A stretch of DNA of 63,474 bases, the filler included, from Dugesia japonica (taxonomy: Eukaryota), in assembly GCA_001938525.1 (NCBI GenBank). It is 5 parts of 5 records of this genome, joined end to end, with 100 filler letters (N's around TTAATTAATTAA, not from the genome) between each part and the next. Parts side by side here need not be neighbours in the genome. Positions count along the whole stretch, not along the records: positions 27,646 to 43,452 come from MQRL01513608.1; positions 43,553 to 54,578 come from MQRL01212318.1; 3 more parts are not named here. The stretch is one strand, 5' to 3'. The notes below the pieces were generated by a model, which ran no database searches, had not been told where the DNA came from, and worked only from the letters and a program-made list of their open reading frames with translations. Each line of letters begins with the position of its first letter. Within the stretch, counting starts at the first letter, position 1. Positions 1 to 61,500 of this stretch are shown here, in pieces. The position numbers and the translations under genes were made by a program.

Positions 1-328
1 CCTAGCCAGTGGTTAGACCCTGACGTCTTGAATTCAATGTAACTGTCAATTAATAATAAATATTTAATTATTAGCACTGACTTGACTTTCCGTATAAATA
101 AAAGAAGTTAAATAATAGAATTGGTTTAGATTGTCTAAACGTTACTGGGAAAATAGAGAACCCGAACCAAAGGTTTATTGGCGGGTACTTCCCATCAAGC
201 GAGAAGTCAACCACAATAAACTGAAAACCTACCTTAGGGACGGTAGGGTATTAAATTCTTGAAAGGGTTCCACTGAGGACTGTTTTTTCCCCAGTCACAA
301 CATTTTCCACTCAGGTGGAACCCCAACA
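1..328 (+). mobile_element. 3' end of a long LTR (TGTTGGGG...CCCCAACA family), including the last 13 codons of the LTR-encoded ORF
   Basis: Ends in CTCAGGTGGAACCCCAACA and is homologous to the reverse complement of 40751-41030. Reads PSQWLDPDVLNSM* (1-42), followed by AATAAA at 55-60. Confidence 0.85.
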
Positions 329-1729: not shown

Positions 1730-1962
1730 GTTTTACAATTGCAATTATTGCGAGAATAATTGTTGAAAGTAACCATTGATCGTTTTGCAAAATTCATTAA
1801 AATAAAAGCTACGATCAAAATTTGTTTTTTTGGTTGTTGATTATTATTCTATATTTCGACCTTGTCTTAGTCAGGAATTGACTTTTACAAAAGTCGAAAA
1901 ATAGAATTATTATCATAAATCAAATAAACAAATTTTTATCGAAGCTTTTATATTAATGAAAT
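1730..1962. mobile_element. Palindromic MITE-like element
   Basis: Imperfect inverted repeat TTCATTAAAATAAAAGCTACGAT...ATCGAAGCTTTTATATTAATGAA. Related copies at ~11520-11655, 35103-35280 and ~55140-55232. Confidence 0.7.
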
Positions 1963-1967
1963 AATTT

Positions 1968-1989
1968 ATTCTTATTCTTATTCTTATTC

Positions 1990-2038
<49 letters not shown>

Positions 2039-2088
2039 NNNNNNNNNNNNNNNNNNNNNNNNNNNNNNNNNNNNNNNNNNNNNNNNNN

Positions 2089-2157
<69 letters not shown>
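1968..2157. repeat. (TTATTC)n/(ATT)n microsatellite spanning an N gap
   Basis: Simple repeat visible directly. Confidence 0.95.
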
Positions 2158-2158
2158 G

Positions 2159-15869: not shown

Positions 15870-15881
15870 TTAATTAATTAA
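15870..15881. other. Artificial six-frame-stop contig linker (also at 27590-27601, 43497-43508, 54623-54634)
   Basis: Identical TTAATTAATTAA flanked by 44 N on each side, four times. Confidence 0.95.
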
Positions 15882-17094: not shown

Positions 17095-21773
<4,679 letters not shown>

Positions 21774-27170: not shown

Positions 27171-27645
27171 ATAAAGATTAATTACCAGAACATTTCTCTG
27201 GATTATGATCAGTGTATAAGGGTCTCAAATTGGAATGTACATTATTCAAAAATACAGTTTAGCGAAGTGAAAACATACAAAAACTATATAACGTAATTCT
27301 TTGTATTAAACCAACGTCTACATATGTGTTTTCCGTATGCAGTAACTTTTGCACCAAAATAAAATCGCGCTTTTCTGATAGATCACTTCAAGCTCTTGTG
27401 TTTTTAAACTACTATTATAAGAAGTAGAAATGTAATATAAATGGTGTTTTTTTCTATATGATAAAATGAAATGTTATAAACAATAAAATGTTATCTTTTA
27501 CTTTAAGAAATTTGAGAAAAATAAAAAACAGTAAAAACAGCTGTTNNNNNNNNNNNNNNNNNNNNNNNNNNNNNNNNNNNNNNNNNNNNTTAATTAATTA
27601 ANNNNNNNNNNNNNNNNNNNNNNNNNNNNNNNNNNNNNNNNNNNN

Positions 27646-30500
27646 TTAATGTTAAGAATAATGACAACACGTGTTTTATTTATAGCATTCTTGCTGTTCT
27701 TAAACAACATGAAATTTGACAAAATCGACATTGTGTTGCAAAATATAAGGATTATATGTCAGAGTTAGTATTTGAAGAGTTTAATATGCCAATGAAACTT
27801 GTAAATATCCCAAAATTTGAGAAACAAAAGCCAGGATATGCAATCAAAATCTTTTTCTGGAACTCAGAATCAGTTCAAGATAATGATAATATAATCATGA
27901 AGCATCCAAACTTGGATATTATTCACCGGTCAAAAGTGGAAGATGGGCAGAAAATTAATCTCTTGTTGCTTGAAGATGGAGAAAATTACCATTACACTGA
28001 AGTGATAGATTTAAATAGACTTATGAATAGAGACATAAAAGAAAATGGAGTGCAAATTTGATTAATCTGGTGTCAAAATTGGTTAAATGGATTCAAGAAT
28101 AATATTGCTTTGGAGACACATAAAGCACTTTACAGCAAAATGCAAACTGGTACAACTATGTACAAAATGCCAACAGAAAAAAAATTAATATTCAAAGATT
28201 ATTCAAAAACGATGACTCCATCTTTCGTGATTTATGCTGATTTTGCGTCAGTTTTAGAAAAGGATCTAATTTATCATCAAAAACATATTCTAATTTCAGC
28301 TGGACTTTTGTTGGTAAATAATTATACCAACGAATTTAAATACAGTCAATTTATTAGACCAGACTGTGTTTTGGAATTTTTATTGAAATTACAAGAAATT
28401 AGTAAGGACATCGTATATCCATATTATATGGAAAATAGCAAAAAGGATATGGAAATAACTGTAGAAGAAGAAATGTCATTCAAAGCAGCAATATCTTGTT
28501 ATTTATGTAACAAATCAATAGTAAAACTAGTTTGTGACTATGATCATTTTACTGAAAATAAATAGATCCAGCATGCAGTAAGTGTAATATAAGCAGAAAA
28601 ATTAAATATGAATTGCCTGTTGTATTCCACAATCTGAAATGATATAATCTCCACCATATTCTCAAGTATGATCTCAATCAATTCCCAGAATGAATATCTC
28701 ATTCCTACAATGTATTCCTACAACTCAAAAGTTCTTATGTCTTACTGCACATGCATCAAAAAACAACAATAAAATTCATTGGCTCATACCAGTTCATTAA
28801 TTCATCATTAACTTCTGCAGTCCAGTCAATTAAAACTACTCCTTTGACATCAAAAGAATTTAATGGTGATCGTATTATAAAGTCAAAAGGGATTTTTCCA
28901 TATGATTTCACCACAAGCTTAGATGTTTTAATAGAAGCAATGTCAATGCCACCGAGATGGGATCATGTGAGTGAACAAGAATATGTCAAAGCAGTTCAAA
29001 TATTGGAGATCACTAATTGTAAAAACCTACTGGATTATATGATGGTTTATCTTAAGCTCGATGTCTTTTTGTTGGCTGATTTCTTCCTACAATTTTGATA
29101 CAAGTCTATAGCTGACAATAAGTTGGAACCATTGAATTTTCTCAGGATACTAGGCATTTCATGGGCATCTGCATTGATGACTCTTAAAGAACCAATTGAA
29201 TTATTAACGGATAATTACATGTATAGATTATTTGAAGGGGGTATTAGAGGAGGGCTCACGTTTGTTAACAAATATTTTGTCAAAAGTGATGAAAACACGG
29301 ATATTCTATAAATTGATATTAATAACTTGTATGGGTGGGCTTTAAGTGAAAAATTGCCCTATAAAATCTTTGAGTGGATATATTCGGGATTGGATGCAAT
29401 ATTAGAAGAATGCAGAACATGTGATTTATATTCGGTATCATATGGTTATACTATGGAAGTGGATATAGTAATTCCGAAAGAATTACATGAATATTTGAGT
29501 GATTTACCTGTCGCAGTCAAACATCAAAGTCCTCCAGAATCAAAGGTGAAGAAAATATTGCTGACACATTATCTAAAGCAGAATTATGTGGTACACTGGA
29601 GGATACTATAAATGTACTTACAATTAGGTGTACATGTTACAAAAATACATAGGGCTGTGAAATTCAATCAGGACTACATCTTTAAAAATTACATTGATGA
29701 GAACACAAAAAAAACATCAGAGAGTAAATCGCATTTGGATAAAACTACTATATGACGTTGAATAATAGTCTTTATGGTAAAATAAAACAGTGGAAAATTT
29801 ATAGAAAACGTTAAATTTAAGATTATGTAACTCAGCTAAAAGACTTATGACTTATGTTTCAAAACCATATTTAAGAGAAAACAATCAAAATTGATGATGA
29901 TTTGATTGCTGTTATACTAAACAAGGAAATAGTTTGCTTAGATAACCCAAGTTACATAGGGCAGATGGTGCTCGATCTTAGTAAACTAAGAATGTACCAA
30001 TTACAATGTGTAAAACTTGAGAAATATCGAAAGGAGCAGAAATGTGAGATTAGTATAGTAGCTGGTGACATAGATAGTTTCTTTTTAGAAATTAAAAATA
30101 TAAAGCTTGAAAAATTGTTAGGACTCATAGTACAAGATAATCTGTTAGATACATCAAATTATAGGGAAAGTCATCCATTATTTAGAAACAAATTGAACTT
30201 GGTTGTAGGAAAATTTGAGGATGAGAATAAAGGTAAGAAATATGTTGAATGGGTTTTTCTTAGACCAAAATACTATAGTCTTCTTAGTGAAAAGGAATCA
30301 ATGAAGGTAAAGGAATTATATTAAAAGATAGTGACTAAACATGCCAGTCAAATCGTGTTTGATACAACGAAAATAAGAGAATATTAGTTAATCAGTTCAG
30401 AATAGGGACTATAAATCATCAGATTTATAGTTTTATGAGTTCAAAATTAGCACTTATAAATAATGACGACAAAAGAGTATGGGTAGCCAAGAACTTAAGC
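27646..30500 (+). pseudogene. Protein-primed family B DNA polymerase (Polinton/Maverick/adintovirus-type) with an embedded endonuclease-VII-like zinc domain
   Basis: NVKNNDNTCF, VIYADF (ExoI), CYLC..DYDHFT..ACSKCN, VVFHNLK (ExoII), KGIFPYD, YLKLDV (ExoIII), GIRGG, DINNLYG (A), NNSLYGK (B), AGDIDS (C), GKFEDE, LRPKYYS. Many stops. Confidence 0.93.
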
Positions 30501-35352: not shown

Positions 35353-35898
35353 ATGTCTAACGAAAGGTCCAACGAATTCTATTTACGTTATTATGTTGGA
35401 CACACAGGAAAATTTGGTCATGAATTTTTAGAATTTGAATTTCGCCCTAACGGTTTATATAAAATTTATATTAAATTTAGATTAATTTATATTTTACTTT
35501 AGGTAAATTACGGTATGCTAATAATTCCAACTATAAAAATGACACAATGATTCGTAAAGAAGTAGAAACATTTATTATTATCAAAGAAATTTAATTTACT
35601 TTAGGTATTTGTAAATACAGCTGTTTTAAAAGAGCTGAAAAAAATTGTTGAAAGCAGTGATATAATGAAAGAAGATGACAAATCTTGGCCTTTACCAGAT
35701 CGAGTCGGAAGACAAGAATTAGAGATTGTTAATGGGGATGTACATATTTCTTTTACCACATCTAAAATAGGGTCATTATTAGACATTAATCATAGCAATG
35801 ATCCAAATGGTCTCACTATTTTCTATTATTTGGTTCAAGATTTGAAATGCTTAGTATTCTCTTTGATTGGTTTACATTTCAAAATAAAACCAATTTAA
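35353..35898 (+). CDS. mago: Mago nashi, exon junction complex core, 150 aa. Exons 35353-35452, 35503-35561, 35605-35898
   Basis: [43 protein letters not shown]...[19 protein letters not shown], with two GT-AG introns (50 and 43 nt). Confidence 0.97.
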
Positions 35899-39220: not shown

Positions 39221-40988
39221 ATTTTTTATCATTTTAATTCCTCTTTATTTTTATTTTTCATTTTAATTCTTCAATTGCTGATATTTCTGCTCATTTTTCC
39301 ATTTAAAATCTTCTTTTTCATTTTAAATCCTCCTTAGTTCCTCACTTGAAAAAATTAATTTCTTTTTTATTTTTTAATTCTTCAAAAATTGTATTTCGTT
39401 TTACAATGATGATTAACCTCATAATCATGATCTTATTTGAAAATATATTACTAAATAAATCACAATAAAAATTTCTATCTGTTTTTGTTTAATTTTTAAA
39501 AATATAAAAACAATTAGAATTATTTCTTATTTAAAATACTTTACTAGAATATTTCATAAAAACATTAAAAAACTGTAATGTAATAGCAAACCTTTTTCAC
39601 TTGGCAATTTCTTTTTGCATATGTTACATTCGAAAAATGTGTTTCTTGATCTTGTACACATTTGTGATTGGATGTGACGTCACTCTCGGTTATTTTTAAA
39701 AATCTTAAAAATTAATATTGAAGCACTCATTTTTATAGAGAAAAACTTTTGGTTGAGTTAATAAAACTATCATTAGGCTGTTGTTATTTTATGTGAAAAA
39801 ATAAATAATAATTTTTTGTTTTAGTAAACTTTTGGTTTTGAAATTTAACACTTTATTTAATTCATTATGCATTAGTTTCATTACTAAATATTTTTCTTGA
39901 TTTTTTATTTATTGATTTATTTTTATTTGATAGATTTGATATACTCATAGTAAAATTTTTCTTTTACTTGAACTTGTATTAATTCAAAAGAATTTGTCTT
40001 GATATTAAAAACATAATCTCCATAATAATTTTTTATATATTGTTGAGATTTTTCATCAAAATAATATTTTACGTGAGTATATCTTATCAAATTTGTATAA
40101 TAAAAAAGTCTATTTACTTAATTATTCCATCTTATTTCAGCTATCATAATTCTAGTTTTAGTCACAGTTATGATTTTAATGCTTTATTATTTCAATTATT
40201 TTTTTATGATTTTAATTTTGTTTGGCTCATTATTAAATTAAACTTTTACTTGTATAGTTAACGGTATTGATATTTTCATGTCATATTTTAGTGTCTGAAC
40301 ATGATCCGTATAACCATATCATATCTTATTATATAACCGTTTTATCTTAGCTATTAATGCTCGTGTGAATGTTAGTATCTTGATAAGCGTTGTAATATGA
40401 TCCTTTCACGCTGAATATTTTGTACGTGTTATGATTTATAACTTAGCTATGATAAGTATAGACAGAGAGTAATGCGTATGTTAATGATTATCGTACAGAG
40501 TAACAACATTAAATAATACATTATTTTTCGATTTAACTTTTATGGTGATACAGTAAATTGATTTGTTAGTGTGAATTGGGTATATTTTATAATTAACAGG
40601 ATCGTATTGAATACGACGATCCAGTAACATATNTCAACTATTTTGGAGAAAGTTACTGCCGAAGGAACCGATAATAATCACTGATGGATTCATCACGACA
40701 TGATCCACCAGCTGAATGCTAGGATTTGTTGGTTAGGGAATCAATAGTATTGTTGGGGTCCCACCTGAGCTGAGAGAAAAAATAACGTGGCTGGGGAAAA
40801 CAGCCCTCAGGGGAACCCTTTCAAGAATTTAGCTTACCGCCCCTAGGGTAAGTATTCAGTTCATGGCGGTTTACCTCACTCTTAATGGGAGGTGCACGCC
40901 CACAAACCTTTGTATTTGGGTTCAATAATTTCCCTTATTTTACACAAATTTAAACCAATAATTCTTGAAACATTTATTAATATAGCAG

Positions 40989-41371
40989 TTATAGGTTGTT
41001 TAGCACGCTAGGGTCTAGCCATTGATCTGGGTCGTTTATTGTAAAATTGAAGGCGGCGACATCGTCGTCATCGTTACAATGAATCCAAGCTGGATTCCCA
41101 ATCTGTCGGGAAAGGTCAGAGATGTACTGTTTTAAGNAGTCTATTTTTCTTAACAGTAACTTCTTATTCTCTGCCTCGAGGGCTTTGGTTTGGGTTGCCA
41201 AGTCATTTTGCTTACGAACTAACAAATCCAATTTTTTATGAGTTGATTCCTCTGGTCAAGGTGCTTAAGAAGAGCTTGTTCTGTTTTGCGTTTCAAGTGT
41301 CGTTCTAATAGTAGACGGCGCAGGATGCGGTGACACCTCCTCAAACTAGTTGGAAACACGATACGAGGCAT
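40989..41371 (-). CDS. LTR-encoded ~127-aa basic/leucine-zipper/acidic-tail protein (one frameshift in an A-run at ~41232-41237)
   Basis: ATG in AAAAATG context. ORFs 41219-41431 and 40989-41231 join by a -1 shift, and the Leu heptad register continues across it. C-terminus conserved in the copy at 1-42. AATAAA at 40973-40978. Confidence 0.65.
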
Positions 41372-41690
41372 TTTTAATTGTAAGATTTCTGCAACGGTTA
41401 ATTGTCGGGGATAATAATTGATCGAAACCAAAAATATATAATTTGATGTGGTCTTCTTCTCGCACCTTTGTAGATAATAAAATTAACTTAAGATAAGCTG
41501 AGTTGCAATTTTACTTGGGTTTTCAGTTTAATTTCTACCGAGACGAAATTGATTTTCTTCTAGTAATTGGATTGGAGAGTGACTTTCTCAAACTGAGTAA
41601 ATATAATGAAAATTTTTCTTTGGTAGTTTCTACACAACTATTAATTAATGAAAAAATGTTTTGTTTTTTCTTGGTGAAATCCGAGTTCTC

Positions 41691-41890
41691 TTTTATAGTG
41701 TTTCTTGATACAACCCGGCATCATTATCATTGGGTGGTATTTTTGTCTCAAAATTCCAGTGTTTTATTGGTGCTAGTGCCATAATTCTAGAATTTTCAAA
41801 GAATTTTAGAACTCTGATTGGTAAGTATTTTGAGAGGGCCATGTGATAATTCTTTCTTTGTGTTATTTTTATTTTTAGGCCTCCCATTGG
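41691..41890 (-). promoter_or_regulatory. LTR promoter: three CCAAT boxes and TATAAAA
   Basis: CCAAT at 41886-41890, 41817-41821 and 41766-41770; TATAAAA at 41691-41697. Equivalent motifs in the 52579 copy (TATATAA at 53247). Confidence 0.65.
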
Positions 41891-43559
41891 TCCAATCTTG
41901 TGGACCCTGCAGCAGCCCTCTGGAAGGTGGTAAGTTTTTCTTTCTAGTAATTTTAGTTGCATTTTGATATTCTCGTCCTATATTTTCTTGTCCGGCTTTT
42001 TTCTGATTTCCCTGAGTGAAATTATTCGGATAAAACGAATTTTTTGTTAATTTCACTTCTTTTTTTATTTAAAATTAATTAATATTTCTCCTCTGTTAAT
42101 TGATTGCTTTTATTCCGATTTTCTCGGTTTTTATTATTATTTAATAATTCTTTTTAATTCTGCTACCTACATGGGTGGTTTTATAACACTGAGTTCGTTG
42201 AACCCGTCTTCGATGGTATTTTATTTTTCTTTACTGATTATTTTCCGTTACAAATTTCCCAAATTATAATCGCTTCCTTCTTTGAATTCCATTACACGTG
42301 AGTTTATGGGTTTTACTGTTCATCTTTGCCGATTCTGGATTTTTTGGTTTTATTATCTTTCTTCACAGGTGTTTCACCCCAACAGTATTAATATCACTAC
42401 TGCTAGCATGAAAAAAGATTACGAGCATTAGAGCAATAGGAGCGGGGCAGGAGCAACAACAAAGGTGGAAAGCAGTAGAATTAAGCTGGTAAAAGATGCA
42501 GCTGCACATAAACGAAGGAACAGCTGGTTAGGCAAAACCTATTGCTGTAAGAACGTGTACTCAGTCTTATGATTCAATGCTCTTAGATCTCGTGAAGACG
42601 TTGGTGGATTATCGAGTACTATTATAGCCAGTGTAAGGTTACTACGTAAGTCCAAAGAGTCGGCATCATACCGTTGAAGTGAAGAAAGATGAAAGGTCAT
42701 TATAGTTAGGATTATTCCAAACCCCAATAATTGGGTGTACAAAGGATGCTGTAATTAAATAAATTTTCCGACGTTATACCTAGTCATGAGTTGTTTTTAT
42801 ATTAGAAAGTCATAACAAAAACTAAAACCAACAAAGAGGATTTGATCAAAGATGGGTTACCCCAAAGATTCGTTGGATCCAGGAAAATACGATGAAAACA
42901 TACGAAGTGCTTAAATTTTTGTGGTTTCTAGGACACCATACTTAAAACAGCTTACTAAAGGAACCAATAAATATAGAATCAAAAAGAGCNNNNNNNNNNN
43001 NNNNNNNNNNNNNNNNNTAAACATCAAAAGCCTAGAAGCCAAACAAATCACTATTTTATAACTGCAAGCATTAAATGTTTATTTTAAACGACTCATACAA
43101 CATATTGAGTATACAATAATACAAGATCTTAAAATAATTAGGCAATTGTTTTAATTAACTTCAGATAAAACCAATATTAGGAGAATTAACTAAGCATCTT
43201 TGATTTAACAATAAATATCGAGACTAAAATTGAGAAACCAAGGAAGACCTAAAAGGTCAGCGAAGCTAATAAGAGTACAGAAGAACACCAACAAATTTGA
43301 TTACAAGAGTACAAGTACACTGAAAAAATCAAATCAAATACTAGTAAATTAGAACGCAGAAAAGACGATGACTGCTTGAAACAATTATTCTGTTAAATAA
43401 ATACATCTTAAAAAAATCTAATTAAAATCATAAATATATATATATATATATANNNNNNNNNNNNNNNNNNNNNNNNNNNNNNNNNNNNNNNNNNNNTTAA
43501 TTAATTAANNNNNNNNNNNNNNNNNNNNNNNNNNNNNNNNNNNNNNNNNNNNTAATAAT

Positions 43560-45159
43560 ATTGTTCCTCCCCATCTGATTTGTTGGATCAGATGTTGGAC
43601 GCGTTACACAGGAATGGATATTTTAGCTCGATCGATTTGGGTTATGCATATTACCAGGTAGAACTAGACAAGGATTCTCAAGAGAAAACCGCTTTTTCGG
43701 CAAAACACGGACAATACTGTTTTACTAGGATGTCATTTGGAATAGCAGCAGCNNNNNNNNNNNNNNNNNNNNNNNNNNNNNNNNNNNNNNNNNATCTGAA
43801 GGGAGCAATGATATACATTGACGATATATTAGTTTTTTCAAAGGATGAAGCGAGTCATTAAATTGTAGTAGATGAAGTATTGAAACGGATAATGGATACG
43901 GGGTTAAGAGTTTATCCAGAGAAATGTGATTTTCTAAAACAAGAAATTAAATTTCTGGGACATATTGTGAGCGCAAATCGTAAATTTATTATAGGTTATG
44001 TGGCTAAATCTAGAAAGTTGGAACAATTTTGCAGCGGTGCGGATAATACGAAATTTATTTGGAATGAAGAATTGGAAGGAATATTTCAAGGATTGAAAGT
44101 TGCGTTAATGTCGGCACTAATACTAGCATTTTCTGACTTGAACAATAAATTTACACTGGATGCAGATGCTAGTTTTGATACAATTGGGGCTGTTTTATCC
44201 CAGACTGACAATATGTGAAGAGAGAGAATTATTGCGTATGGATCACATGCAATGACCAGTCACGAGAAAGGTTATTGTACCACAAGGAAGAAATTGCTAG
44301 CAGTATATTATTTTTGGAATTTTTTCAAGAATTATCTTTATGGGAAGCGAATTAGGCTCAGAACGGACCATAAAGTCATCACGTTCCTGTTAGGAACAAA
44401 GAAACCAGTAACGCCACAATTTCAGACGTGGGTGAACTATTTGAGCAGCTTGGACATAGAGTTGCTTTATAGAAAAGGGGAATTGCACAGTAATGCAGAT
44501 ATGTTATCACGACCTGAGTGTGATAATTGTACTCAGTGTCAGATGTATCATGAAAGTGCAGCAAAAGGAAGATTAAGACAAGAATGTTACAAACCGTAGC
44601 TCCGGTGAAAATCGAGGAAGACATAGATAGAAATTCAGAATGGTGTAATAAGAAAGTATCAAGGATACACAAACTGTTGTGTCACGCTGGGGTAGAAAAG
44701 TCAACAGATTACATTAAAAGACAATGACCAAAGATTAAATGTGGAGACAAGATCAAAGAAGTGATTCAAAGTTGCGAACATTGTCAGAGAACAAAAAATT
44801 GGACGGGCTTGACAAAGAAAGTGGTAGTAAAAACAGAAGCAGGTCTTCCAGCAGAAACACTGTGGATAGATATATGTGGACCATGGAGAGAAACATCAGG
44901 AAAGAAAAAATAAAGTAGGCGAGAAAACAGACGAAAACAACAATAAAGATGACGAAAGGAAGAACATGACTAGAAGACACTTTCAGGTTGGGCAGTGGGT
45001 CTTAGTTAGAAGTGAAAGGGGCAATAAAAATAAAGAAAAATTTATTGAATTTTACCGAGTGATAGAAAAGCGACACGAGATGAGATACATGTTACAAAAT
45101 GAACAGGGAAAAAAGATAGACAGGAATGTGGAAGTTAAAAATTTTCTTAAAAGAGGGGA
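43560..45159 (+). mobile_element. Gypsy pol remnant (RT, RNase H, partial integrase) ending in a polypurine tract
   Basis: FSSIDLGYAYYQV, IYIDD, DADASFDTIGAVLSQ, LRTDHK, HSNADMLSR. PPT AAAAGAGGGGA at 45149-45159. Confidence 0.92.
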
Positions 45160-45472
45160 TGTGAGGAATATATGACAAGTGAAAATTTTTGTTGTTTAAA
45201 TATTCCAAAAAATATATAAAACAGTGTTAATTTTTAAATAGTAATTTTTAGGGTAATTAAGAGTAGCAGATCAGTAGTAAGAAATTATTGTAATTTGTTA
45301 ATTGTTGTAATTACTTGTAACTGTGTTAAGTTTTATTAAATTGTAAATTTTATTCGGTAANNNNNNNNNNNNNNNNNNNNNNNNNNNNNGAAGTTAATAA
45401 ATCTTTGATAAATAATTTTAGTTATTATGTTAGATTCAAATTTAGGAAATCTGGAGTTATGTATGCCTCACA
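45160..45472 (+). mobile_element. Gypsy 3' LTR (~313 bp including an N gap)
   Basis: TGTGAGG...CCTCACA termini immediately after the PPT, with internal TATATAAAA and AATAAA. Confidence 0.85.
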
Positions 45473-45845
45473 AAATATATTACTTGATTAAAATTACTTT
45501 TAAAAAAATTTGATCAAACAAATTAACTGTTTAATTTTTGTTATATAAGATTATTCACATCTTTTATAACTACAACTTAAATATAATAAATAAATAAATA
45601 AAAAACTCAATATAAACTCAATATAATTTAATTTCAGTTTTTCACTAAGATAATAAATTGAAAATATTCTATTGTTACTGTTAGGATGTTTTAATATCCA
45701 AAATAAAAATTTTATTTAATAATAATTGAAGAAATTTTAAATAAAAAAAGAAAGTAATTAAAACAATTAATTGTTTTAATATTGCTATTTTGTTAAAATA
45801 AATTTTCACTAGACTTACTTATTACTTATTAATAAATATTTATAG

Positions 45846-48585
45846 ATGGAAATTGCAGAAAGTATAGCAGTGGCTAACATGGCGTTCCACGCAAGTGCGA
45901 CAAAGGACATGCTCATACAAGCTTGGATGCCAAAAATATTTCATAAAATAGATGGCGTTAAGAAGTTTATAATCGAATGCCGAAAGTATTTTTATGCAGC
46001 AAACGTATTCAAAAGTACCAGAAAACTGGTAATTGTAGGCCTACTTGATGATAAATTGAGGAGAAAATTCGAAAAAACCGATGATGGACATGGTTACGAA
46101 GATAGACTAAGACGTAAAGGATTTTGAAAGCATATTGTCATACAGACGACAAGAAGAGGATGTTGACAGCTTTGGGGAAGAAATTGACAAGATGGTTGAG
46201 TTACTGATGGCATACAACGATAAGGAAGAAATGAGGAAAGAACTTCTTATGCATAGTTGTAATAGGGGCGAAATTAAGAAAAATGTGGTAATCCAAAATA
46301 TTAAAGATTCGGACGGCATTATTACGCTTATGTGAAGCATTGATAGAATTGAGGATAAAGAGTCAATAAATGCAATCCGTCCCAGTTACAGAGGAGCCCT
46401 AATGAACAATAACCAACAATACAATAATTTCAAACGCCGAGAGGATTACCAGACAAGCAGAAATCCAAGGCAGATGGACAACAAACAACAAGAGATATTA
46501 TGTTACGGTTGCAATAAGCAGGGCATATAAGAAAAGAATGCCTATCAACACCCATAAGAAAATGTTTCGGCTGCGGATCAACCAAACACATAAGGCGTTT
46601 TTGCACGAAAATAAAATGCCAAAAGTGTACAATTACTAGATATCGAGCAAATGAATGTAAAATGTCAGAGGAAAGGATTCAACAAATAAGTAGACTGGTT
46701 GAGTGTGATAGACGAAAATGGGGTAATAAAGTGGAGTTAAATGATAAAAGGTTAACACAGAAAGAAACATCAAGACGGAACAATGGACGAAATACTATAA
46801 ACACAGTCAGTGACCAATCACCAAACAGAGAAATATATGAAAACGAATACGATGATGACGACAGATTTGGAAGCAAATACAGTGAAAACAGGCACCCAAA
46901 TTGGAGAGCTCCGTCAGAAGACGAGATGATATGAGCCTTATACTAAACACAATGGAAAGTATTACTCGCAACAGAGCCTGCGCGGTGAATACTGTAAGCG
47001 TTAGTGTAAGAGACGATAGAAGTAAAAAGATAAACAGCGAGGATAAAAATAGAGAAGTGGAAATAATGACAGTTAAAAAATGGAAAAGAGTACAGATATC
47101 AGATATGATAGAATGCAAGGTACCCCCAGTATTGAGATGGAAATTTAAGATAAGCCATTCTATTGTATGTTGGACACAGGAGCGAAAATTAACGTGATGA
47201 GCGACAGAGTTCTTAAGGAACTCAGTAATATATTAATACAAAAAGCAGATGTAAAATTACGATGTGCTAACAATAATATACTGGAAACGCTAGGGCAAGT
47301 GTTGGTTGAGACATCTATCGGACAACAAAGAGAAATGGTTAAAAATACGATAGCAAAACAGGTGTGTCCAGACATCATAGGAGGAATTTAGCTACAGCAA
47401 CAATTCGGCTTTGAGTAACAAAGAAGATCATTGGAAGAAAATGAGACACATTGGTGTTTTAGAAGCAAAATTTGGAAGAGTCATATCAGACGAAAAACGG
47501 GAGCAGCAGGTTTTAAAGATAATTCAATCAAACAAAGAAGCAAGAAAGATAATAGTAGCTAATAGACGAGCCTTCGTGGTTGACGATTGAGATATTGGAT
47601 GCAACATGCTCGTGAAGCATAAAATAATAACGAAAAGAGAGTCAATCAACATAAGGCCATGGCGTTAACTGATAAACTTAGAAGACGAAATTGAAAAAAC
47701 ACTACAGAACTTAGAACGGCATCCTCATGAAATTTAATTCAAGCTGGATTATTCCACTAGTTTGCATATGGAATAAAAAAAAGAAAAAGCTGAGATTATG
47801 CTTAGACTTTTGCCAGCTGAACCAATTATCGGAGAGACAAGCATATCCAATGCCAAACACAGAGGAAATGCTAGATAGATTAAACGGAGCCCGTTCTTTC
47901 AACACAATTGATCTGGGCAATGCGTATTATCACTTGAAATTGGAGGAATCGTCACAGGAGTAAACAGCGTTCTCTACCAGAAAAGGTCAATACTGTTTCA
48001 CGAGGATGCCGTTTCAGATTGCAGCAGAGACAGGCGAATTCCAGGAATTGATGACAAACGTACTGGGAAGCACATCTGGAGCTATGGTATATATGAATGA
48101 TATTTTAATTTATTCGGATAATGGCACGGACCATTTCAAGACGCTGGACACTGTACTTAAAGAAGCAGCAAATGCTAGATTACGTATCAACCCCAAGAAA
48201 TGCAGTCTAGAAGTTTCTAGGACATATCTTGGATGAAAATGGCATCCGAACAGATCCTACTAAAATAGAAAGTAGGAAAGAAAAAACTTCGAGAGGCCAA
48301 ACTGTACAAAACAAGTCAGAAGCTTTCTAGTTATGTGTAACTACTACCGGAAATTTATCAAGGGATATTCTGCAAAAGCCAAAGCATTAGAAGAATTATG
48401 TGGCAGAAACAAAGATAAGCTAATATGGACACCGATATGCAACGAGGCATTTCAAGAATTGAAACAGGCTTTAATAAAACACCAGTGCCAGGTTTTCAAG
48501 ACAGAAATAAAGATTTCATATTAGACACTGATGCAAGTTTTAATAGCATCAGGCCTGTGCTATCACAACTGAATGAGAAAAAGAT
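45846..48585 (+). mobile_element. Gypsy gag-pol remnant (gag with three CCHC knuckles, protease, RT, start of RNase H)
   Basis: CYGCNKQGH, CFGCGSTKH, MLDTGAKINV, RLCLDF, IDLGNAYYH, VYMND, LDTDAS. Confidence 0.92.
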
Positions 48586-48589
48586 TTAA

Positions 48590-48679
48590 AATTAAAGAAT
48601 TTGAAAATGTTTTGGCGAACCAGCTATCATCTGTTCACGAACCATCAGTGGTTCGCGCATCACAGTTTGTGAACCCCTG
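48590..48679. mobile_element. hAT-Charlie-type terminal fragment
   Basis: Ends CACAGTTTGTGAACCCCTG (reverse complement CAGGGGTTCACAAACTG). Confidence 0.6.
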
Positions 48680-49059
48680 ATTTAAATATTAATATTTAAT
48701 TGTTTTTTTAATTTAAATATTTATGAACTATTTTATTTTGTGTTTTGATTGTTACATATATACTGCTTTTCAAAGTTTTGCCCAATTACCGAGTACAAAA
48801 GTGAATATATTTGAAAGTTTTTCAATAGAATTTCTGATAATGCCGCTTGCCGCTTTTGCGGTTAACTCCTTGGATGCAATAGCTTTTCAACGACAGGTTT
48901 ACATCGCCATCTGATTAATGTTCATCATTTGAAAAGAAAGATAAAGAAATCCGCGCAATTTGCCAGTGATAGTACATCTTAAAATCAAAAATTACATACT
49001 ATCCATCAATTTTTGTTACCAAAAAACTTGGAAATTGGAATAAATTGTCACTACACTCA

Positions 49060-52000
49060 AACTTGCTTTCGTACAGAGAATAAAATGGTATCAAAGATGC
49101 TAGTTATTTGTTCAGATAACAAAAAAGTTGAAGAAGAGGTTACTTTGCGGAAACGGCAGAATATAGAAGAAATTGAAGAAACAATAACGTTAGTCGATTG
49201 AGTAGAGAGAAACAGAGATCCGGCCAATGCAGTTAGAAGTTAAGCGAGAGTTTCAAATCAAAATTATCAGAAAACTGTTAATAATATAGTGAATAGACAT
49301 GTAGATCAAAGAAAGGAAAAACGAATTATTGAATGTTGGTTATGTCAAAAGATCGGTTATAATTAAGCAAATTGTCCGACGAAAAAAGTGTTAGAGTGTT
49401 GGACTTGTCATAAAAAATGGCATATAAGTCAATATTGTCCAAATAAAAAACCAACAAATGCTTTGGTTGTGGAAAGGATGGCCAAATTAGAAAGTTATAT
49501 GAAGAAGTGAGGTATAAACGATGTGTAAATGCTGTCATAGGGCAAGAGTACTGCATAAATTTGAAAATGAAAAGAATAAGTGAGAAATTTATGACTGCTA
49601 GCAGAATAAGAAATCAATATAGTCGAATACGTGCGATTGCAGATGAAGATGTCAATACAAACGATGCATATAAGGCAGTGTATGAAAGTGATTCGGAAAA
49701 GCAGTGCCCAAAGGTCAGGGCTCCATAAGTAGAGCAGTTTGTTGGAGACATCCATTATTAAAAAAAGTTAATGAATATCTTCAAAGGATAGAAAATTGGG
49801 ATGATATCGGGAAAGTTACAGAAAAAGTATACGAGTTCTTAGAACGGGAAAATTTTGAGGATGATACAAAAGAAGAATGGGTTGGAGCAATTGAAAAAGA
49901 AAAGAAAACAAATATTTTGTATCATAAATTCCATGGCAGACCAAGTGTTACGGTATCAATTCAAGGAAATAAAGTTGAAAGTCTATTAGATGCAGCGGCT
50001 CAAATTAACGTTATGACTTTGAGTTGTTTTAATAATTTACAAGACCTACATTTAGAAATGAGTGATGAAAGATTACGTTGTGCAAATAATAGTACATTTG
50101 AAATTGTTGGGAAAGTTAGAACTGGAGTGATAATTCATGAAGTTTGCAAAAATATTACTTTCTTAGTTAAAAGAAGAGTGACACCAGATCTGATTGGATG
50201 AACAGATATGCAGAAGACCTTTGGATACCAGCTTGTATAAAACGTCTATAGTAAACCGGATGAAAAAGTTGAAAATTACATTATTAATATTAAAGCAAAA
50301 TTTTGGAAACAAATTAAAAAAGAAGAGCGATTGACAAGAACCTTAAATACTTTGAGGATGAAAGACGTTGAACAGTTATTGAAAATAATTAGAAGTAAAG
50401 AAGCTGTTTTTATGGGAGATAAATAGGACGTAGGACTCACACATCTGACAAAACACAAAATAACTACAAGTGGTGAACCAATCAATTTAAAACCGTACAG
50501 GCAACCAATGAACTTAGAGGCCAAAATTGAAGAAGCTATTCAGAACCTTTTCGAGAATAATATTATCAGGAAATGCAACTCTCTATGAAATAACCCACTG
50601 ATTTTTGTTTGGAAAAAGGAAAAGAAGGACATAAGAATATGTTTGGATTTTAGACGATAGAATGCAGTAACAAAAAGGCAAGCATTTCCGATACTTAACG
50701 TTGATGAAGAAAAATAATTCAGTTCAATAGATTTTGGGAAATTCATACTATCAGGTCAAGCTCGAAGAAGAATCTCAAAAAAACGGCGTTTTCAAGGAAG
50801 CATAGACAATATTGTTTTAATAGAATGCCATTTAGTATCGCAGCTGCATCAGGTACATTTCAGAAGATGATGACAAAAATGGATGACGGAATCAATGGAG
50901 CCATTTTTTATCTCGATGAAATTTTGAAATTTTTGAACAATGAAGATCGACACTATGAAATAATTGACAAAGTATTGACGAAAATAATGTAGGCTGGTTT
51001 AAGAATTAATCCAGAAAAATGAGAGATTCTTCAAAGCGAAATCAAATTTGTTGGACACATAATTAGCAGGGATGGTGTCAGAACTGATCCGTCTAGAATA
51101 GAAACAATAAGAACATTTGGGAAACTTAATTGTGTGAAAAAAGCTGCCAAGTTTCTTAGGAATTTGTAATTACTACAGGAAGTATTTAGAAAATTATGCA
51201 AGAAAGTCAAGGATTTTAGAACAGTTGTTTAGCGGACCAAGCACCAAGAAATTAGAATGAACAGATGAAATAAACGATACCTTTGAGAGTCTGAAGAAAG
51301 CGCTAATGACTGCGCTTACATTGTGTTTTCCAAACATAAACAAAGAATGTTTATTAGATACAAATGCCAGTTTCGATACAATCGGAGCAGTATTGTCATA
51401 GAAAGATAAAGAAGGAAGAGAAAGAGTTATTGCCTATGGATAACACTCAATGACGAGTCATGAAAAGGGATACTGCATTACACGAAAGGAGTTATTGGCT
51501 GTGTATTATTTCTGTATTTATTTCAAACATTACTTGTACAGTAGAAGATTTACTCTTAGAGCAGATCATAAAGCTCTAATCTTTTGATGATGACGAAGAA
51601 ACCATTCACATTACAGTTCCAGACATGGATTATTTATCTGAGTAGTTTAGACATGGTTTTAGAATATAGCAAAAGAGTTCAACATAGTAATGCAGATATG
51701 TTATTTAGACCAAGATGTGAAGTATGTGTACAGTGTCAAATGTCACATGAAAATGCCAAACAAGGAAGATTAAAACAAGAATACTGAACACAATTGAAAA
51801 AGAAAAAAAAGACCAATCAACGATTTCTGAAGAAATTATATAATCAAGAAAATTAAAATTCCTATCACAAAATTCATGAAACAATAGAAGAAATACACAA
51901 ATTATTATGTCATGTAGGATTTGAGAAGGTGTACTTATATATGAGAAATAAATATATCGCAAAGAATTTGTGGAGCTAAATACAGAAGATAGTTTAAAGT

Positions 52001-52578
52001 TGTGAAATTTGTCAGAATACCAAAGTAATGATGACAGCAACTAAAGATAGGACAAAGAAGTTAGAAGCTACAGATTGGTTTGAAGTTATATTTACTGATA
52101 TATGTGGGCCAATTCGAGAAACAAGTGGACAGAAAAAATATATTCTTGGAATAATAGACCAGTACAGTGAATATCTAGTTCTTGTAATAGTGCCTAAACT
52201 AGACGAAGAAAAAATACGAAAAGCTAGATATTAAACTTCACTTTTTGAGTCCCTATCATCACAATGCAAACGGAAAAATTGAGAGACAGTTCAGGAAAAT
52301 TCGAGATTTAATTAATGCAACACTTCAGGAGAGAAGGACAACAGATTGGGTAGATATTTTACCCGAAACACAATTTACGATGAATGCAACAAAGCAGAAG
52401 ACGACTGAAAAGAGCCCAGCTGAGATCATATTTGGAAAGAAAATTAGCAGAGAAGAGTGATACGAGTCAGACGTTTCAGAGAGAAATAAGGAAAAAATTT
52501 CAGAAGTGACTACTAATAGAGAATTCAAAGTGGGCGATTTTGTACTCATCAAGGTAGAAACAAGAAATAAAAGCCAAG
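49060..52578 (+). mobile_element. Near full-length but degraded Gypsy gag-pol, interrupted in the integrase C-terminus by an LTR insertion
   Basis: Gag knuckles, LLDAAAQINV protease, RT (FYLDE), RNase H, integrase (TDICGP, SPYHHNANGKIERQFR). Confidence 0.92.
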
Positions 52579-53560
52579 TGTTGGGGTGAAACACCCATTA
52601 AAGAAGGAAAATAAACCCAAATCGGCAAAGAAGAACAGCAGGGCATTATAATGCCCATAAAGAAAACCAAAAAGAAAAACAATCATGATCAGGGAGGTCA
52701 TAATGGAAAAAACCAGAAAAAAAATACAATGAGAAACGGATACGACAAACCATATAAAATAAAATTAACCTATATCAATACTGAAATTAAAAAGAATTAT
52801 TAAATTCACAAGAAAAAATTAAGAAAACATTAAAGAAAAATAATTAATTAACAGAAAAATATCAATTAATTTTGAATTAAGAAAGAAGGAAAATTAGTTG
52901 AAAATCCGTTTTACCCGAATAACTTCGCTCCAGAAGATCAGAAAGAATCCGGGTAAGAAAATACAAAAAGAAAATATCAAGACGCATCGAAGATGCCAGG
53001 AAGAAAAAACTCATCACCATCCAGAAGTTTGCTGCAGGGTTTTCTTAATCGGGCCCATAAGAACTCTAAAAATATAATTAAAACAAAGACACAATTGTCA
53101 TGTGTCACTCTAAAAATAACTGCCAATTGCGGCACCAAAACTCAAAGAAAATTCTAGAAAATTGGCACTGGAACCAATAAAATCAGAAAATTTCAGTCTA
53201 AAAATAACCCACGAATCTGGAAGAAGTTGGGGTGCGCAGAAAATCCTATATAAGAACCCCGGAAGTTTAGAACAACAACAACAAAAATTTCTTATACGAT
53301 ATTGTTATTGAGTGATTTACGTGAAGTAACTTGGTAAAAGAAATCACATTAGAAACCTTTTCAAGCAGGATCGAATACTAAATTGATAAGTTTAAATTGG
53401 TAAGATCGAGACCACTGATAAGTTAATTAATCCGAATCATTACTAGAATTAAAGAGGAAATTAGTTCAACTACTCTAGAAGACCAATTTTCAATAGAAAT
53501 CGTTAGCCAGTTTGCCTGAAATCTACTCTCGTGTCAGAAATTAACCCGTTGCAGAACCAG
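52579..53560 (+). mobile_element. 5' part of the TGTTGGGG LTR family, truncated before its ORF
   Basis: Starts TGTTGGGGTGAAACACC and is colinear with the reverse complement of 42384-41389, including CCAAT, TATA and TTAACCCGTTGCAG. Confidence 0.82.
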
Positions 53561-56059
53561 TCTAATTGATAACCGAGTAAGGATTTGTTGTTCAAGATGT
53601 GTGCTATTTAATGAAAATGTTAATAGTAATTTAATAAATAAAATTTGATTCTATTTATCAAAAGTTTTAAATTAATTTTAGAAAAACATTAAATAGGAGA
53701 AAGTACACCAAATGTTGCGTCGTGTACCGATAATTCTCTGTAGACCTATGACCTTAATTATGCACACCTCACTTATAAACAAAGTACACAACTGATAGCC
53801 CTTGTTTCGCCCTGCATTGAAATTCACATAATAACTGAACCACTTCATTGGCAGTAAATTCTGGAGCATCTTTATTATATAATCAATTAACATCCGACAT
53901 AATTTCGTCAGCACTAGTCTTATACACCTCGCACTAACTCGTTTACAATGCATGCCTACCACGATATCCTCACACACGGAATACAGCAATCACCAGATCG
54001 CAACTATATGAGTTAAATTAATTCGTAATTGGTTTAACAACCTTAAAAGTGTTGTCAAGGGAGACATAAATAATCATGATTCAAATAATATTGTTTTATG
54101 AATATAATTTTTTATTGAACATGAATTTTTATTCAGTTATGCTTTTAGGATAGCGCTATTTAAAATCAGACCAAACTTTATCTATAAAATGGAATCGTTT
54201 TTTCTTCGAAATTGCAAAACCAAATATTCCGGTTTCAAAGGTTGTGAATAAATATCTATAGGAAATAACTGATTTACGTTGAATTGTATCAAAATTTTTA
54301 AAATTTCCGTCTAAGTCGTTTTATAAATTTGATAAGAAAAATATGAAGAGTATCGTTAGCGGAATGTATAAAATTATTAGAACAAGATTTGGTGTAGATC
54401 TAACAGTGTATAATAATTTATAGAAAATTTGTATCTATTATGATGTAGATTTTGAGATTAATGATGTTACCAAGAGTATGGCAAAATATCAAGTTGAGTG
54501 CAATAAAAACATTTTCGTTAAAAATATTATTCTCATAAAGGAGAAATGGTGGGAGCAGAAAATTCACTTAAAAGTGTTNNNNNNNNNNNNNNNNNNNNNN
54601 NNNNNNNNNNNNNNNNNNNNNNTTAATTAATTAANNNNNNNNNNNNNNNNNNNNNNNNNNNNNNNNNNNNNNNNNNNNTCTCTTCATTTTTAGATTTTTC
54701 ATTAAGTAGAATACTTATTTTCTTTTTTTTATTGAGATAACGTATTTCTTTATATTTGTCAAACGTTTCCTGATATACTTTATTAAGAGGAAAAGGTATA
54801 GGTTTATTTAAACCAAGATAACCGTTTTTTGATCCCGAATACTTTTGCGTTAGTAGAAATATATGCAAAAAGAAAAATGTTGCTTACAAAATTACATCCA
54901 CCTTTAGAAACATATCAAATGGAAAGAAATTGGAAAGACAAACATAAATTTTCATCAGAACAACATCACATTACATGGAAACCATTTGGAAAAGACTAGA
55001 TTTCTACACTTCACATTAAGAAATATTAATCAAAGAAAATAAATATAAAATCAATATAATTTATAATAATTAAAATAATTTACCAAATAAAATACAACAA
55101 AAATAAACAAATTCAATATTATTTCTATTTACCGTGAATCAATCATTAAGTTAAAGTTAATTGTAGAAACATTAAATAATTAACAAACAAAGAAGAAAAA
55201 CAATATTTTGATCGAAGCTTTTAATTTAATTAAATTTAATTTATTTAATATTTTTTTTCAAATAAATTAAATAAATTAAAATTGAAAATATATTTTATAT
55301 AAATAAATTTGTAATAAAAATTATTTGAAAATAGTAGATTTTTAGAAATATAAGTTAATTTTCAAATTATTTTGGCTACGTATGAAATATGTATTTTTTG
55401 AATAAACAAAATAAATAAATCGTTATTTTGTTTTAAATAAAATTAATAATCTATATATAATCCTTTACTGCCAAATATTATTTATTTATTAAATTATTAA
55501 TTATTAATTAAAATAATAATTGAGTTTCTTTGATTACTTTTACAAAAATTTATTTCATCGATAATATAATTTAATTTTAGAAAGCAAGAAAACCAAAATT
55601 CGAAGTAAGATTTATTTATAAATAAAATTATTAATGAAATATTTTGTTTAGTAAATCAGGGTGTACTATTTTATAATGGGAGATTTATTTACAATTGAAC
55701 ATAAGAAAAACATTTTATATATTTTTTAAAATTAATTAAATAATTTTTGAATCAACTTTTATTTTATTCTTTAATTAATTCTCTAATTATAATTTAATTG
55801 AATCTCTAATTTAAATTAGTTATAATTTAATTAATTGTCAACATGTCATGTGTAATTATCATTTTATTTAATCGCAGATATTACAACGCTTCTATCACTT
55901 TCTTTCTTTAAATAGTTTTTGAATTAAACAATATTTTAAATGAAAAATTATAAGTAGTTTAAAAATTAACATTTAAAAGTAAAATATAATTTGAAACTAC
56001 ATTTAAAGAGTTTTTCTTAAAAATTAAACATATTAATAAATTATAATTAAAATTAATTT

Positions 56060-58429: not shown

Positions 58430-59510
58430 CATATTATTGTTTATTCTTACCAGTTCTCTTTGATTCTATACCTTTTTCTATTCTAAATATATCAATAGCA
58501 GAATGTCTTGTGATTATTGTTCGTAAAATTTTCCTTGAATGATATTGTATTCATAATCTTTAATAACATGCATGTCACATTCTGTTTCGTCTAAATTTTT
58601 ATTATTTAAAACACTTCATCACTTCATGTACTACTGGAATTTTTGATGCCTGGTAAAGCTGATATTTTCAAGATTCTCACAGTACAACAAAATATTTATT
58701 TTTTTTATGCTTCAACTGTTCCAACCAATTCAACTTTTCTCTCATCCGCAAAATTTTCACTCTTTAAAAATCTGTATACTNNNNNNNNNNNNNNNNNNNN
58801 NNNNNNNNNNNNNNNNNNNNNNNNNNNNNNTATTATTGTTTATTCTTACCAGTTCTCTTTGATTCTATACCTTTTTCTATTCTAAATATATCAATAGCAG
58901 AATGGCTTATGATTATTGTTCGTAAAATTTTCCTTGAATGATATTGTATTCATAATCTTTAATAACATGCATGTCACATTATGTTTCGTGTAAATTTATA
59001 TTATTTAAAACACTTCATCACTCCATGTACTACTGAAATTTTTGATGCCTGGTGAAGCTGAGATTTTCAAGATTCTCACAGTACAACAAAATATTTATTT
59101 TTTTTCTGCTTCAACTGTTCCAACCAATTCAACTTTTCTCTCATCCGCAAAATTTTCCCTCTTTAAAAATCTGTATACTTTTTCTCTAACTTTCCTGATA
59201 TTATCCCAGTTTTCGACTCCATGAGGATAGGAACTAACTTCATTTAACAATGGATGACTCAAACCAACTTATCTACTGATAGAGCACTTCCTTTTGGGTA
59301 TTTTCTTTCGGAATCACTCTTATATACTTCCTTATATCCATCATTTGTACTAACATCTTTATCTTCAATCGCATGTACTAGATTATATCGGTTTCTCGAT
59401 CTTTCTGAGATCATAAATTTCTCAAGTGTTCTTTTTATTTTCAAGTTTGTGTAGCACTCGTCTGCTATATGTCTATCATTACAACATCGTTGACACCTCA
59501 ATTCTTGAAA
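58430..59510 (-). mobile_element. Gypsy gag-end/pol-start fragment (partly duplicated across a gap)
   Basis: CQRCCNDRHIADEC knuckle; homologous to 49500-49960. Confidence 0.8.
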
Positions 59511-59519
59511 TAACCTTTT

Positions 59520-61500
59520 ATTATGGTAAAAGATAATATTGGGAAATTCATCAAGCGGTGCGAAGTGTATCTTAAAGCTAAAAACCTCACCCAGATGAAA
59601 CAGCAGGGGAGATTAGTCTTTGGTTTTGCTAGATAAAGATTTGTTGGAAGAATATGCAAAAACGTTAAAAAAATTTGAAGGTTTTCAGACTCGTTTAGGA
59701 TGACATTTGTAAATTAGAAAGATATTATCAAAGATTTTCAAATTTTGATTAACTACACGAGTTAAAATGAATAGATTTAAATTTATTTTAAAAATCTAAA
59801 AAATGTAGTGGAAAGATTATTTACAAAAAAGGGATTTTACAAAAGAGAAAACAGGGCAAAACTCTAGAATACTACCAAAAAATAGTTTAAATATAAACAG
59901 ATGCAAAACTTTAAAATATTACTAAGGCAAAGGTATTATGAACAACCTAATAAAGATTAAATACTAACTTAAGTAAAAATGAAATATAATTGGGAAAATT
60001 AATAGAATAAAATAAAGTACCGTAAAGGAAATTTTTAAAAAAAACAGAAGTAAAACTAAAATACTAACCTGAGACAAAATTAAATATTATCGAAGCAAAA
60101 TTTTCCAGACATAAACAAAGAATTTATATTAGGCACAGATGCCAGTTTCAATACAATTGGATCACTATTGTTACAGAAAGATAAAGAAGGAAGAGAAAGA
60201 GTTTTTGTCTATGGATCACACTCAATGACGAGTCATGAAAAGTGATACTGCATTACACGAAAAGAATTATTAAAGTTTATTATTTATGTATGCATTACAA
60301 ACATTACTTGTACGGTAGAAAATTTACTCTTAGAACAGATCACAAAGCTCTAACTTTTATGATGACGACGAAAAAACCAATTACGTTGCAATTCCAGACA
60401 AGGATTAATTATCTGAGCAGTTTAGATATAGTTTAGGTATATAGAAAAGCTATTCAACATGATAATGTAGATATGTTATCTAGACCAAGATATACGATAT
60501 GTGTACAATGTCAAATGTCAAATGAAAAAACTAAGAAAGGGAAGATTAAAACTAGAATAGTTAAAAAGGAAAAAGAAGATCATTTAAACATTTCTAAGGA
60601 AACAGATTTGATCAAGAAAACGAAAATTCCGGATGATAAACTACATGAAACTATAGAAGATATGCACAAGTTATTATGTCATGCCAAAGTTGAAGAGGTG
60701 TACGAATATTCGAGAAACAAATATATTCCACATAATTTGTGGAGCCAAATACAAAACATAGTTTGTACTTGTGAAATCTGACAGAAGACCAAAGTATTTA
60801 CAACAGCAACTAAAGAGAAGACAAAGAGTTTAGAAGCTACCAACTTCTTTGAAGTGATATTCAAATATGTGGTTCTAGACAAGACTAGGAAACCATACGA
60901 AAAGCTATTTTTGAAAAGTGTATTTTGAGATTTGGATATCCGAGACAGATAAGACTCAATTCTAGAAAAGCTTTTGAATCCAGAGTTATGAGAGAATTTT
61001 CACTGAGACTAGATATTATACTTTGCTTTTTGACTCCCTATCATCATAATGAAAACAAACTAATTGAAAAACTGTTTGATTTAATTTAATTAATTAATTA
61101 GATTTAATTAATGCAACAATTCAGGAAAAAAAGACAACATATTGGGCAGATCTTTTACCGGAAATAGAATTTACAATGAACCTAACAAAACAGAAGACGA
61201 TTGGAAAGAGACCGGCTGAGATTGTTTTAGGAAAGAAATTAGCAGTTGAAAGTGTTACCTTAAAAAGATAGACCTTAAAAAACATTTCATACGTGTATAC
61301 TAAAAGAGAATTCAAAGTGAGCGATGTTGTACTCATCAAGGTAAAAACAAGAAATAAACGTCAAGACAGATTTGAAGACCATTATCGAATAATTTAGAAA
61401 ATTCATGAAAGGTGGTATGCAGTACAAAAAGAAAATGGACAGCGATTAGAAAGAAATGTCGAAAAACTTAGGAGGTTTCTTACGAAGTGAGATATGCGGA
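59520..61500 (+). mobile_element. Gypsy remnant: gag fragment, RNase H and integrase
   Basis: TDASFNTIG, LRTDHKAL, MLSRP, HKLLCHAK..CEIC, TPYHH, LPEIEFTMN. Degenerate PPT/LTR start near 61485-61500. Confidence 0.88.

Follow-up and report, generated by a model that had tools for sequence, protein, structure and literature searches.

Can a solo long terminal repeat (LTR), usually treated as a non-coding remnant that lends at most a promoter, carry a protein gene of its own? The question is raised by a repeat on the minus strand of a 63,474-nt stretch of DNA from Dugesia japonica (assembly GCA_001938525.1; five parts joined by 100-letter fillers; below, "the window" is this whole stretch). The element spans positions 40751 to 42384. 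An earlier note on the window had described it as a self-contained mini-gene with an open reading frame (ORF) between a TATA box and a poly(A) signal, of which every solo copy could stay expressed. We tentatively favour the reading that it is a decayed solo LTR, likely of the Ty3/Gypsy type, that this LTR likely carries an accessory mini-gene with its ORF in the transcribed repeat region (R), and that the frame is broken in this copy. The family likely carries, within its LTR, an accessory mini-gene for an orphan coiled-coil protein. The copy 40751..42384 itself appears no longer to make protein, and its value is that of a pointer to the family.

The anatomy was that of an LTR. The TG...CA ends carry a perfect terminal inverted repeat (TIR) of 9 bp, with a gapped, imperfect likeness reaching to about 35 bp, and GTAT stands on both flanks of the 1634 bp. 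Both features, short inverted repeats at TG...CA termini and a target site duplication (TSD) of 4–5 bp around a single repeat, are those of a solo LTR of Ty3/Gypsy elements (Metaviridae). The complete element with its TSD had been recognized in the earlier note, and the LTR-like anatomy proposed there is supported by the termini and the TSD. The element had no Rfam match, and a tRNA scan returned nothing. A search with a 20-nt terminal motif yielded three metagenome, two prokaryote and no viral genome matches; the candidates L001–L003 were rejected, as their likeness ended at 20–29 nt.

The reading frame was not as described before. An ATG at 41371 and an AATAAA located 10 nt past the stop, at 40978, were both confirmed. 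The continuous ORF reported from 41371 to 40989 was absent: the span of 383 nt is not divisible by three, and the conserved tail belongs to another frame. The ATG frame ends after 50 codons, and the second frame, which contains PDQWLDPSVLNNL, has no ATG. Hence the ORF of the copy 40751..42384 is broken, no unbroken ATG-to-stop frame was found in it, and the term self-contained mini-gene does not apply to this copy. At ORF positions 41076 and 41222 (two among the 40 differences listed, beside 107 more), the copy differed from 93–100% of the depth of its relatives in the contig data X1. Both differences alter an amino acid, in keeping with decay after insertion. The copy is probably dead.

At the tail of the ORF, the codons point to protein-level constraint. 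Between the element and a diverged copy at the start of the window (the 1-328 copy), 17 of the 39 bases of the last 13 codons differ and 9 of the 13 residues are kept, six of the nine through synonymous codons. The stop and the AATAAA are also retained in the 1-328 copy; the comparison made in the earlier note was reproduced exactly. The synonymous value (pS) was 1.16 and the non-synonymous value (pN) 0.25, and the base divergence of the tail exceeded that of the non-coding block behind it. When the 17 changes were placed at random, at least nine identities arose in 3–5 per 100,000 simulations for each sequence (P 3–5 × 10−5). The other five frames of the tail gave three to five identities. 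The protein constraint claimed earlier thus holds for the last 13 codons (simulated P ~4 × 10−5), and on this pattern we take the coding signal at the ORF tail to be real.

Upstream of the ORF, a CCAAT–CCAAT–TATA arrangement with spacings of 51 and 73 bp is common to the element and to a second diverged copy, the 52579 copy. The TATAAAA at 41697 was found as reported. The earlier count of three CCAAT boxes did not stand, the minus strand having six; a group of boxes ahead of the TATA box did, with four upstream of it and two of these kept in the 52579 copy. Behind the promoter, the 319-nt leaders of both copies are free of ATGs (P 0.04 and 0.005 against dinucleotide shuffles), a state seen in 24 of 2260 equal-length stretches of the window, and the two leaders are only about 50–58% alike. 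Near the leader end lies a block ending in CAG, with 17 of its 18 columns common to both copies; 18 of 2000 shuffles scored as well. It contains a Myb-type core. This acceptor-like motif is indeed present in the 52579 copy, with one extra base there (53541). Splicing into it, as had been proposed, was not borne out: the two leaders share no donor, and two RNA runs (X11 and X14) contained no splice joint. For these reasons, and because introns need not lose their ATGs, an unspliced, scanned leader is favoured over an intron.

Single motifs carry little weight because they are common in the AT-rich window (19–37% G+C per 2 kb), which has 3.1 AATAAA, 2.3 TATAWA and 1.2 CCAAT per kb. What does exceed chance is the spacing kept between copies, the lack of ATGs in both leaders and the codon pattern. 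A conserved promoter resembling those of RNA polymerase II (Pol II), followed by an ATG-free leader, is supported as a prediction (Table 1).

Table 1. Coordinates of the element, its parts and its diverged copies in the window.
Feature	Position	Strand	Remarks
Whole element	40751..42384	-	1634 bp; ends TGTTGGGG...CCCCAACA, TG...CA
Left GTAT TSD, 4 bp	40747..40750	+	
Right GTAT TSD, 4 bp	42385..42388	+	
Two CCAAT boxes, 51 bp apart	41766..41821	-	Identical spacing in the 52579 copy
TATA box	41691..41697	-	73 bp past the second CCAAT in both copies; predicted start near 41665
Leader without ATG, 319 nt, likely 5' untranslated region	41372..41690	-	Equivalent span of the 52579 copy also ATG-free
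Conserved block ending in CAG	41387..41403	-	Candidate splice acceptor or factor site
First frame, ATG to TAG, 50 codons	41219..41371	-	TAG at 41221-41219
A-rich run, at or near the frame break	41231..41237	-	The two frames overlap there
Second frame, stop to stop, 88 codons, no ATG, one ambiguous base	40989..41255	-	Ends PDQWLDPSVLNNL*
AATAAA, candidate poly(A) signal	40973..40978	-	10 nt past the stop
G+C-richer 3' block, hairpins predicted here and in the 1-328 copy	40751..40940	-	Last ~75 nt most shared with relatives
Diverged member, truncated to its 3' part by the window start	1..328	+	Last 13 codons, stop, AATAAA, structured end
Diverged member, 5' part only, end approximate	52579..53600	+	Terminus, CCAAT/TATA, ATG-free leader, conserved CAG block

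Behind the poly(A) signal, the element ends in a predicted structured block, which the earlier note does not mention. For the last 75 nt, an identical nested hairpin was predicted in the element and in the 1-328 copy, and 0 and 2 of 200 shuffles, respectively, were as stable. Over 198 columns, all 41 of the 41 predicted pairs hold in both copies, four of them changed on both sides and three on one side. The 190-nt block folded alone was not above its shuffles (22/200), and one of five control windows also had an excess of paired changes (2 of 150). A z of −7.7 was inflated, as it came from column shuffles that ignore dinucleotides. Structure at one end only would be more in keeping with the U5 or R-U5 signals of an LTR than with a DNA transposon end.

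Both diverged members are partial. The 1-328 copy agrees with the element in 164 of 201 columns over the last 209 nt. A 33-nt unit in three to four tandem copies (328-448, plus strand) starts directly at its 3' end. The 52579 copy, 72% alike over the best 433 columns, sits inside the integrase frame of another element, of which a partner frame copy at 61279 is uninterrupted; as far as its alignment tells, it is truncated or carries other cargo. In X1, the summed contig depth of relatives, which is no copy number, was 9–15 in the flanks, 980–4600 over the ORF, about 10,000 over the CCAAT region and 228,000 over 40757–40825; it was also high at 41792–41929. The repeat is a member of an abundant family, and a far larger set shares its 3' end. 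The depth over the ORF exceeded that over the leader about 22-fold and that of the flank about 200-fold, the former ratio being a coarse second line on ORF constraint.

The predicted protein was modelled and searched as two separate halves. The first 46 residues of the first frame are basic, with 13 lysines or arginines against 3 aspartates or glutamates, and were predicted to form a helix. For the second frame, a single-sequence model gave a long helix over residues 2–31 (predicted local distance difference test >90) and a low-confidence, acidic-aromatic tail, with seven acidic and no basic residues among 33. The models of both halves are plain helices. A basic helix, a coiled coil and an acidic-aromatic tail would together suggest a self-associating regulator, for example a transcription activator. 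Neither half matched a Pfam family, the best E values were 0.045 in PHROGs and 0.054 in the PDB, and an Atlas search gave no match at 0.9. Protein searches found no match for the second frame among 1 candidate, nor for the first frame among 18 candidates, which were longer proteins. A single match with an E value of 2e-4 among 1.84 billion representatives, to a repeat in a 1607-aa beta-helix protein, was rejected as chance. The candidate L006, a 9-residue match lying in an unrelated frame of 295 codons on a viral contig, was also rejected.

Taken together, these features led us to propose the following course of events for the decayed Gypsy-type LTR with an R-region mini-gene. Recombination of a Gypsy-type element would have left the solo LTR. 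Pol II would start near 41665, ribosomes would scan the unspliced leader to the ATG at 41371, and intact copies would make one protein of about 127 residues, composed of the basic helix, the coiled coil and the acidic-aromatic tail. The short mRNA would terminate after the AATAAA, and the structured 3' block would be a U5 or leader signal for full-length elements. More speculatively, the protein might serve the element in trans, for instance as a transcription activator or a silencing antagonist, as retroviral accessory proteins do. With promoter, ORF and poly(A) signal together in one LTR, protein could be made from a fresh solo LTR until mutation or silencing by PIWI-interacting RNAs ends this.

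A number of results, from DNA and RNA alike, weigh against this proposal. The selection signal consists of 13 codons from one pair of copies, and the compensatory changes in the 3' block were borderline against shuffles (53 of 1000 and 27 of 500). After the CAG block of the 52579 copy, tblastn found no match to either protein half. In the data set X7, the depth of relatives over the ORF was only 1.8 times that over the leader. At the frame break, three X1 contigs differed in length, making up 167 of 1674 summed depth, and the corresponding figure in X7 was 0 of 15.8; some relatives thus differ in length at the break, yet this does not establish intact copies as the norm. Among the 16 pieces listed (beside 3564 more), two span the break with one gap each, the X7 gap being given without a position. 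Within the window, neither a primer binding site (PBS) nor a clean polypurine tract (PPT) adjoins any of the four family termini, and the Gypsy element at 43.5–45.2 kb ends in its own PPT and a different LTR. Across the protein libraries searched with the two halves, no homologue pointed to any function. RNA was taken from X11 and X14, two raw oligo-dT runs that share the species label, mapped at 88% likeness over a quarter of each read. Only 56 of 13.6 M records in X11 and 7 of 11.6 M in X14 were related to the element. All matches were partial and none was at least 99% alike to it; nearly all lay on the 3' block and about one on the ORF, and neither run had listed splice joints or piled read starts or ends.

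No transcript over the ORF of the copy 40751..42384 was therefore found in X11 or X14, and the check for a spliced transcript suggested in the earlier note came out negative. The notion that every solo LTR stays an expressed gene fared no better, with no read at least 99% alike in the two runs and a 52579 copy without an ORF homologue. In normal planarian tissue, Gypsy elements are silenced by PIWI (PMC8532177). Because of this silencing, and because the mapping had no control gene and leaves members less than 88% alike invisible, the silence applies to the element copy and its close kin in two samples only. The set X7, guessed to be RNA, covers promoter and flank like the DNA run and is thus no evidence of transcription. 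Reads from one diverged subfamily cross 40793–40831 in both poly(A) RNA runs, and the loose read ends in both runs suggest that one diverged subfamily is transcribed across the 3' block.

The concentration of reads on the 3' block bears on where the genomic RNA begins. The same LTR with a real ORF could have that ORF in the unique 3' region (U3), under its own internal promoter; genomic RNA would then start near the structured 3' block, whose fold would link the AATAAA to a distant cleavage site. In human T-cell leukaemia virus type 1 (HTLV-1) and bovine leukaemia virus, RNA structure brings an upstream AATAAA to a distant cleavage site, which would be a parallel. If the ORF lies in R, full-length elements must suppress the poly(A) signal and bypass the ORF in their 5' LTR. 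Placing it in U3 avoids both, since the 5' LTR would then impose neither premature polyadenylation nor a long upstream ORF. The 3' block, moreover, is structured, is shared with relatives more than any other part and carries nearly all related RNA reads, and the sag gene of mouse mammary tumour virus (MMTV) is an ORF in U3 driven by a promoter in U3 (PMC9412291). A second promoter is not shown, however, and the reads may cluster there only because the 3' block alone is at least 88% alike. We consider a U3 location of the ORF unlikely.

That the coding signal is a relic is decidedly unlikely in our view. The ORF would then be a captured coding fragment, or would have been constrained only in ancestral elements and be drifting in all solo copies, leaving an ordinary solo LTR. 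The broken frame agrees with this, as do the amino acid changes at 41076 and 41222 against nearly all X1 relatives, the near absence of RNA over the ORF, the 52579 copy without an ORF and the appearance of 88 successive stop-free codons in 5% of shuffles. It is at odds with synonymous saturation at kept residues between subfamilies, with leaders that are ATG-free in two copies as diverged as these, and with the protein searches, which returned no donor gene.

The absence of a PBS or PPT beside every copy in the window would also suit a non-autonomous DNA transposon with a captured mini-gene, moved by a Gypsy-integrase-like transposase of the Ginger type. A whole gene could sit in such a unit without the problem posed by the R region, and TGTNR ends with a 4-bp TSD fit Ginger1 and Ginger2 (PMC2836005). 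These elements, however, require TIRs of 40–270 bp, against the 9 perfect bp found here, and target CCGG/CCGT or RTATAY, from which the three flanks here differ, none fitting (PMC2836005); the element thus lacks their long TIRs and target preference, and it has no transposase. The one-sided structured 3' end, too, suits an RNA step better, and we hold a DNA transposon to be quite improbable.

Very improbable, finally, is that the two offset frames are normal for the family, with a programmed ribosomal frameshift to bridge them at the A-rich run, which fits the slippery-heptamer pattern, or that a homopolymer assembly error conceals an intact copy: most X1 depth at the break is without a listed length difference and, among the pieces listed, none identical to the copy spans it, but three contigs do differ in length there and a hairpin past the run did not surpass its shuffles (z 0.07 and 0.22).

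For a decayed LTR with a mini-gene in R, the known systems offer partial parallels. Human immunodeficiency virus (HIV) nef overlaps the LTR. MMTV sag/naf likewise is an ORF within the LTR, driven by the LTR promoter (PMC9412291). Both belong to the U3 of retroviruses, whereas here promoter, leader, ORF and AATAAA follow in order in one repeat, and no sequence likeness was found. In a flatworm, Echinococcus, the Ty3/Gypsy-linked ta-TRIM and lennie elements form solo LTRs with 4-bp TSDs that are internally transcribed (PMC4558846). Those transcripts are described as short abortive RNAs (PMC4558846), in contrast to the constrained reading frame present in that stretch here. Accessory ORFs are common in LTR retrotransposons and are described in the internal region (PMC7264820, PMC5408684, PMC12786077). 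The plant elements Grande, RIRE2, Retand and Athila (PMC7264820) and the ORF3s of bdelloids (PMC5408684) resemble the present case in having orphan accessory ORFs family-wide, some coiled-coil, but these lie mostly between pol and the 3' LTR and so are lost from solo LTRs.

Planarians themselves contain giant Gypsy elements, Burro/GYPSM1, and GLT/GLT2, which are abundant, bear accessory domains and are PIWI-silenced (PMC6431247, PMC13465017, PMC8532177). The extra domains of Burro are internal, unlike the LTR-resident ORF (PMC6431247, PMC13465017, PMC11410931). The published quantitative PCR primers for GLT/GLT2 agreed with the element at best in 11–13 of 20 bases for 4 of 4 primers, a comparison of primer sites only (PMC8532177; PMC10954484 is cited beside it for one mention). 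The element may already be catalogued as a Burro or GLT/GLT2 LTR. Our literature search, the scope of which left the primary planarian papers and repeat catalogues outside, turned up no account of an entire gene within the LTR of a Gypsy element.

A more far-reaching form of this reading is possible but doubtful. The Gypsy-type family would keep a complete, selected gene in the transcribed part of its LTR; hundreds of solo copies of an orphan coiled-coil regulator would be scattered through the genome, some of them still expressed, with effects in trans on the family or on host cells, and subfamilies would share promoter and structured end and differ in cargo. If the LTR of the family is a full gene, the decay of a retrotransposon would multiply a protein gene rather than remove one, and repeat masking would conceal a high-copy protein family.

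The rest of the window contains decayed Ty3/Gypsy pieces (protease, reverse transcriptase, RNase H and integrase) and a polB fragment. Several nested, decayed Ty3/Gypsy internal regions lie at 43559-52578 and 59086-61500, and a PPT with the start of an AT-rich LTR was located at ~45150-45160. At 27720-30324 (plus strand), fragmented frames of a protein-primed-type DNA polymerase B, with a weak DNA_pol_B_2 match, are likely a decayed Polinton-like element. Host genes are represented by a mago nashi exon (35605-35898, plus strand) and a multi-exon DEAD-box helicase gene (17991-21773, plus strand). An intron-free ORF of 237 aa at 14136-14849 (plus strand) belongs to no Pfam family; its 12 relatives, with 23–60% identity and from assemblies and metagenomes, are all unnamed or hypothetical. 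Its H and C motifs resemble, as we take it, a permuted papain-like amidase, and a viral or horizontal origin is possible. The N fillers with a central TTAATTAATTAA, at 15825-15925, 27546-27646, 43452-43552 and 54579-54679, give rise to false repeats. A 349-bp direct duplication with 97% identity at 58432-59179 lies beside a gap and is perhaps an assembly overlap.

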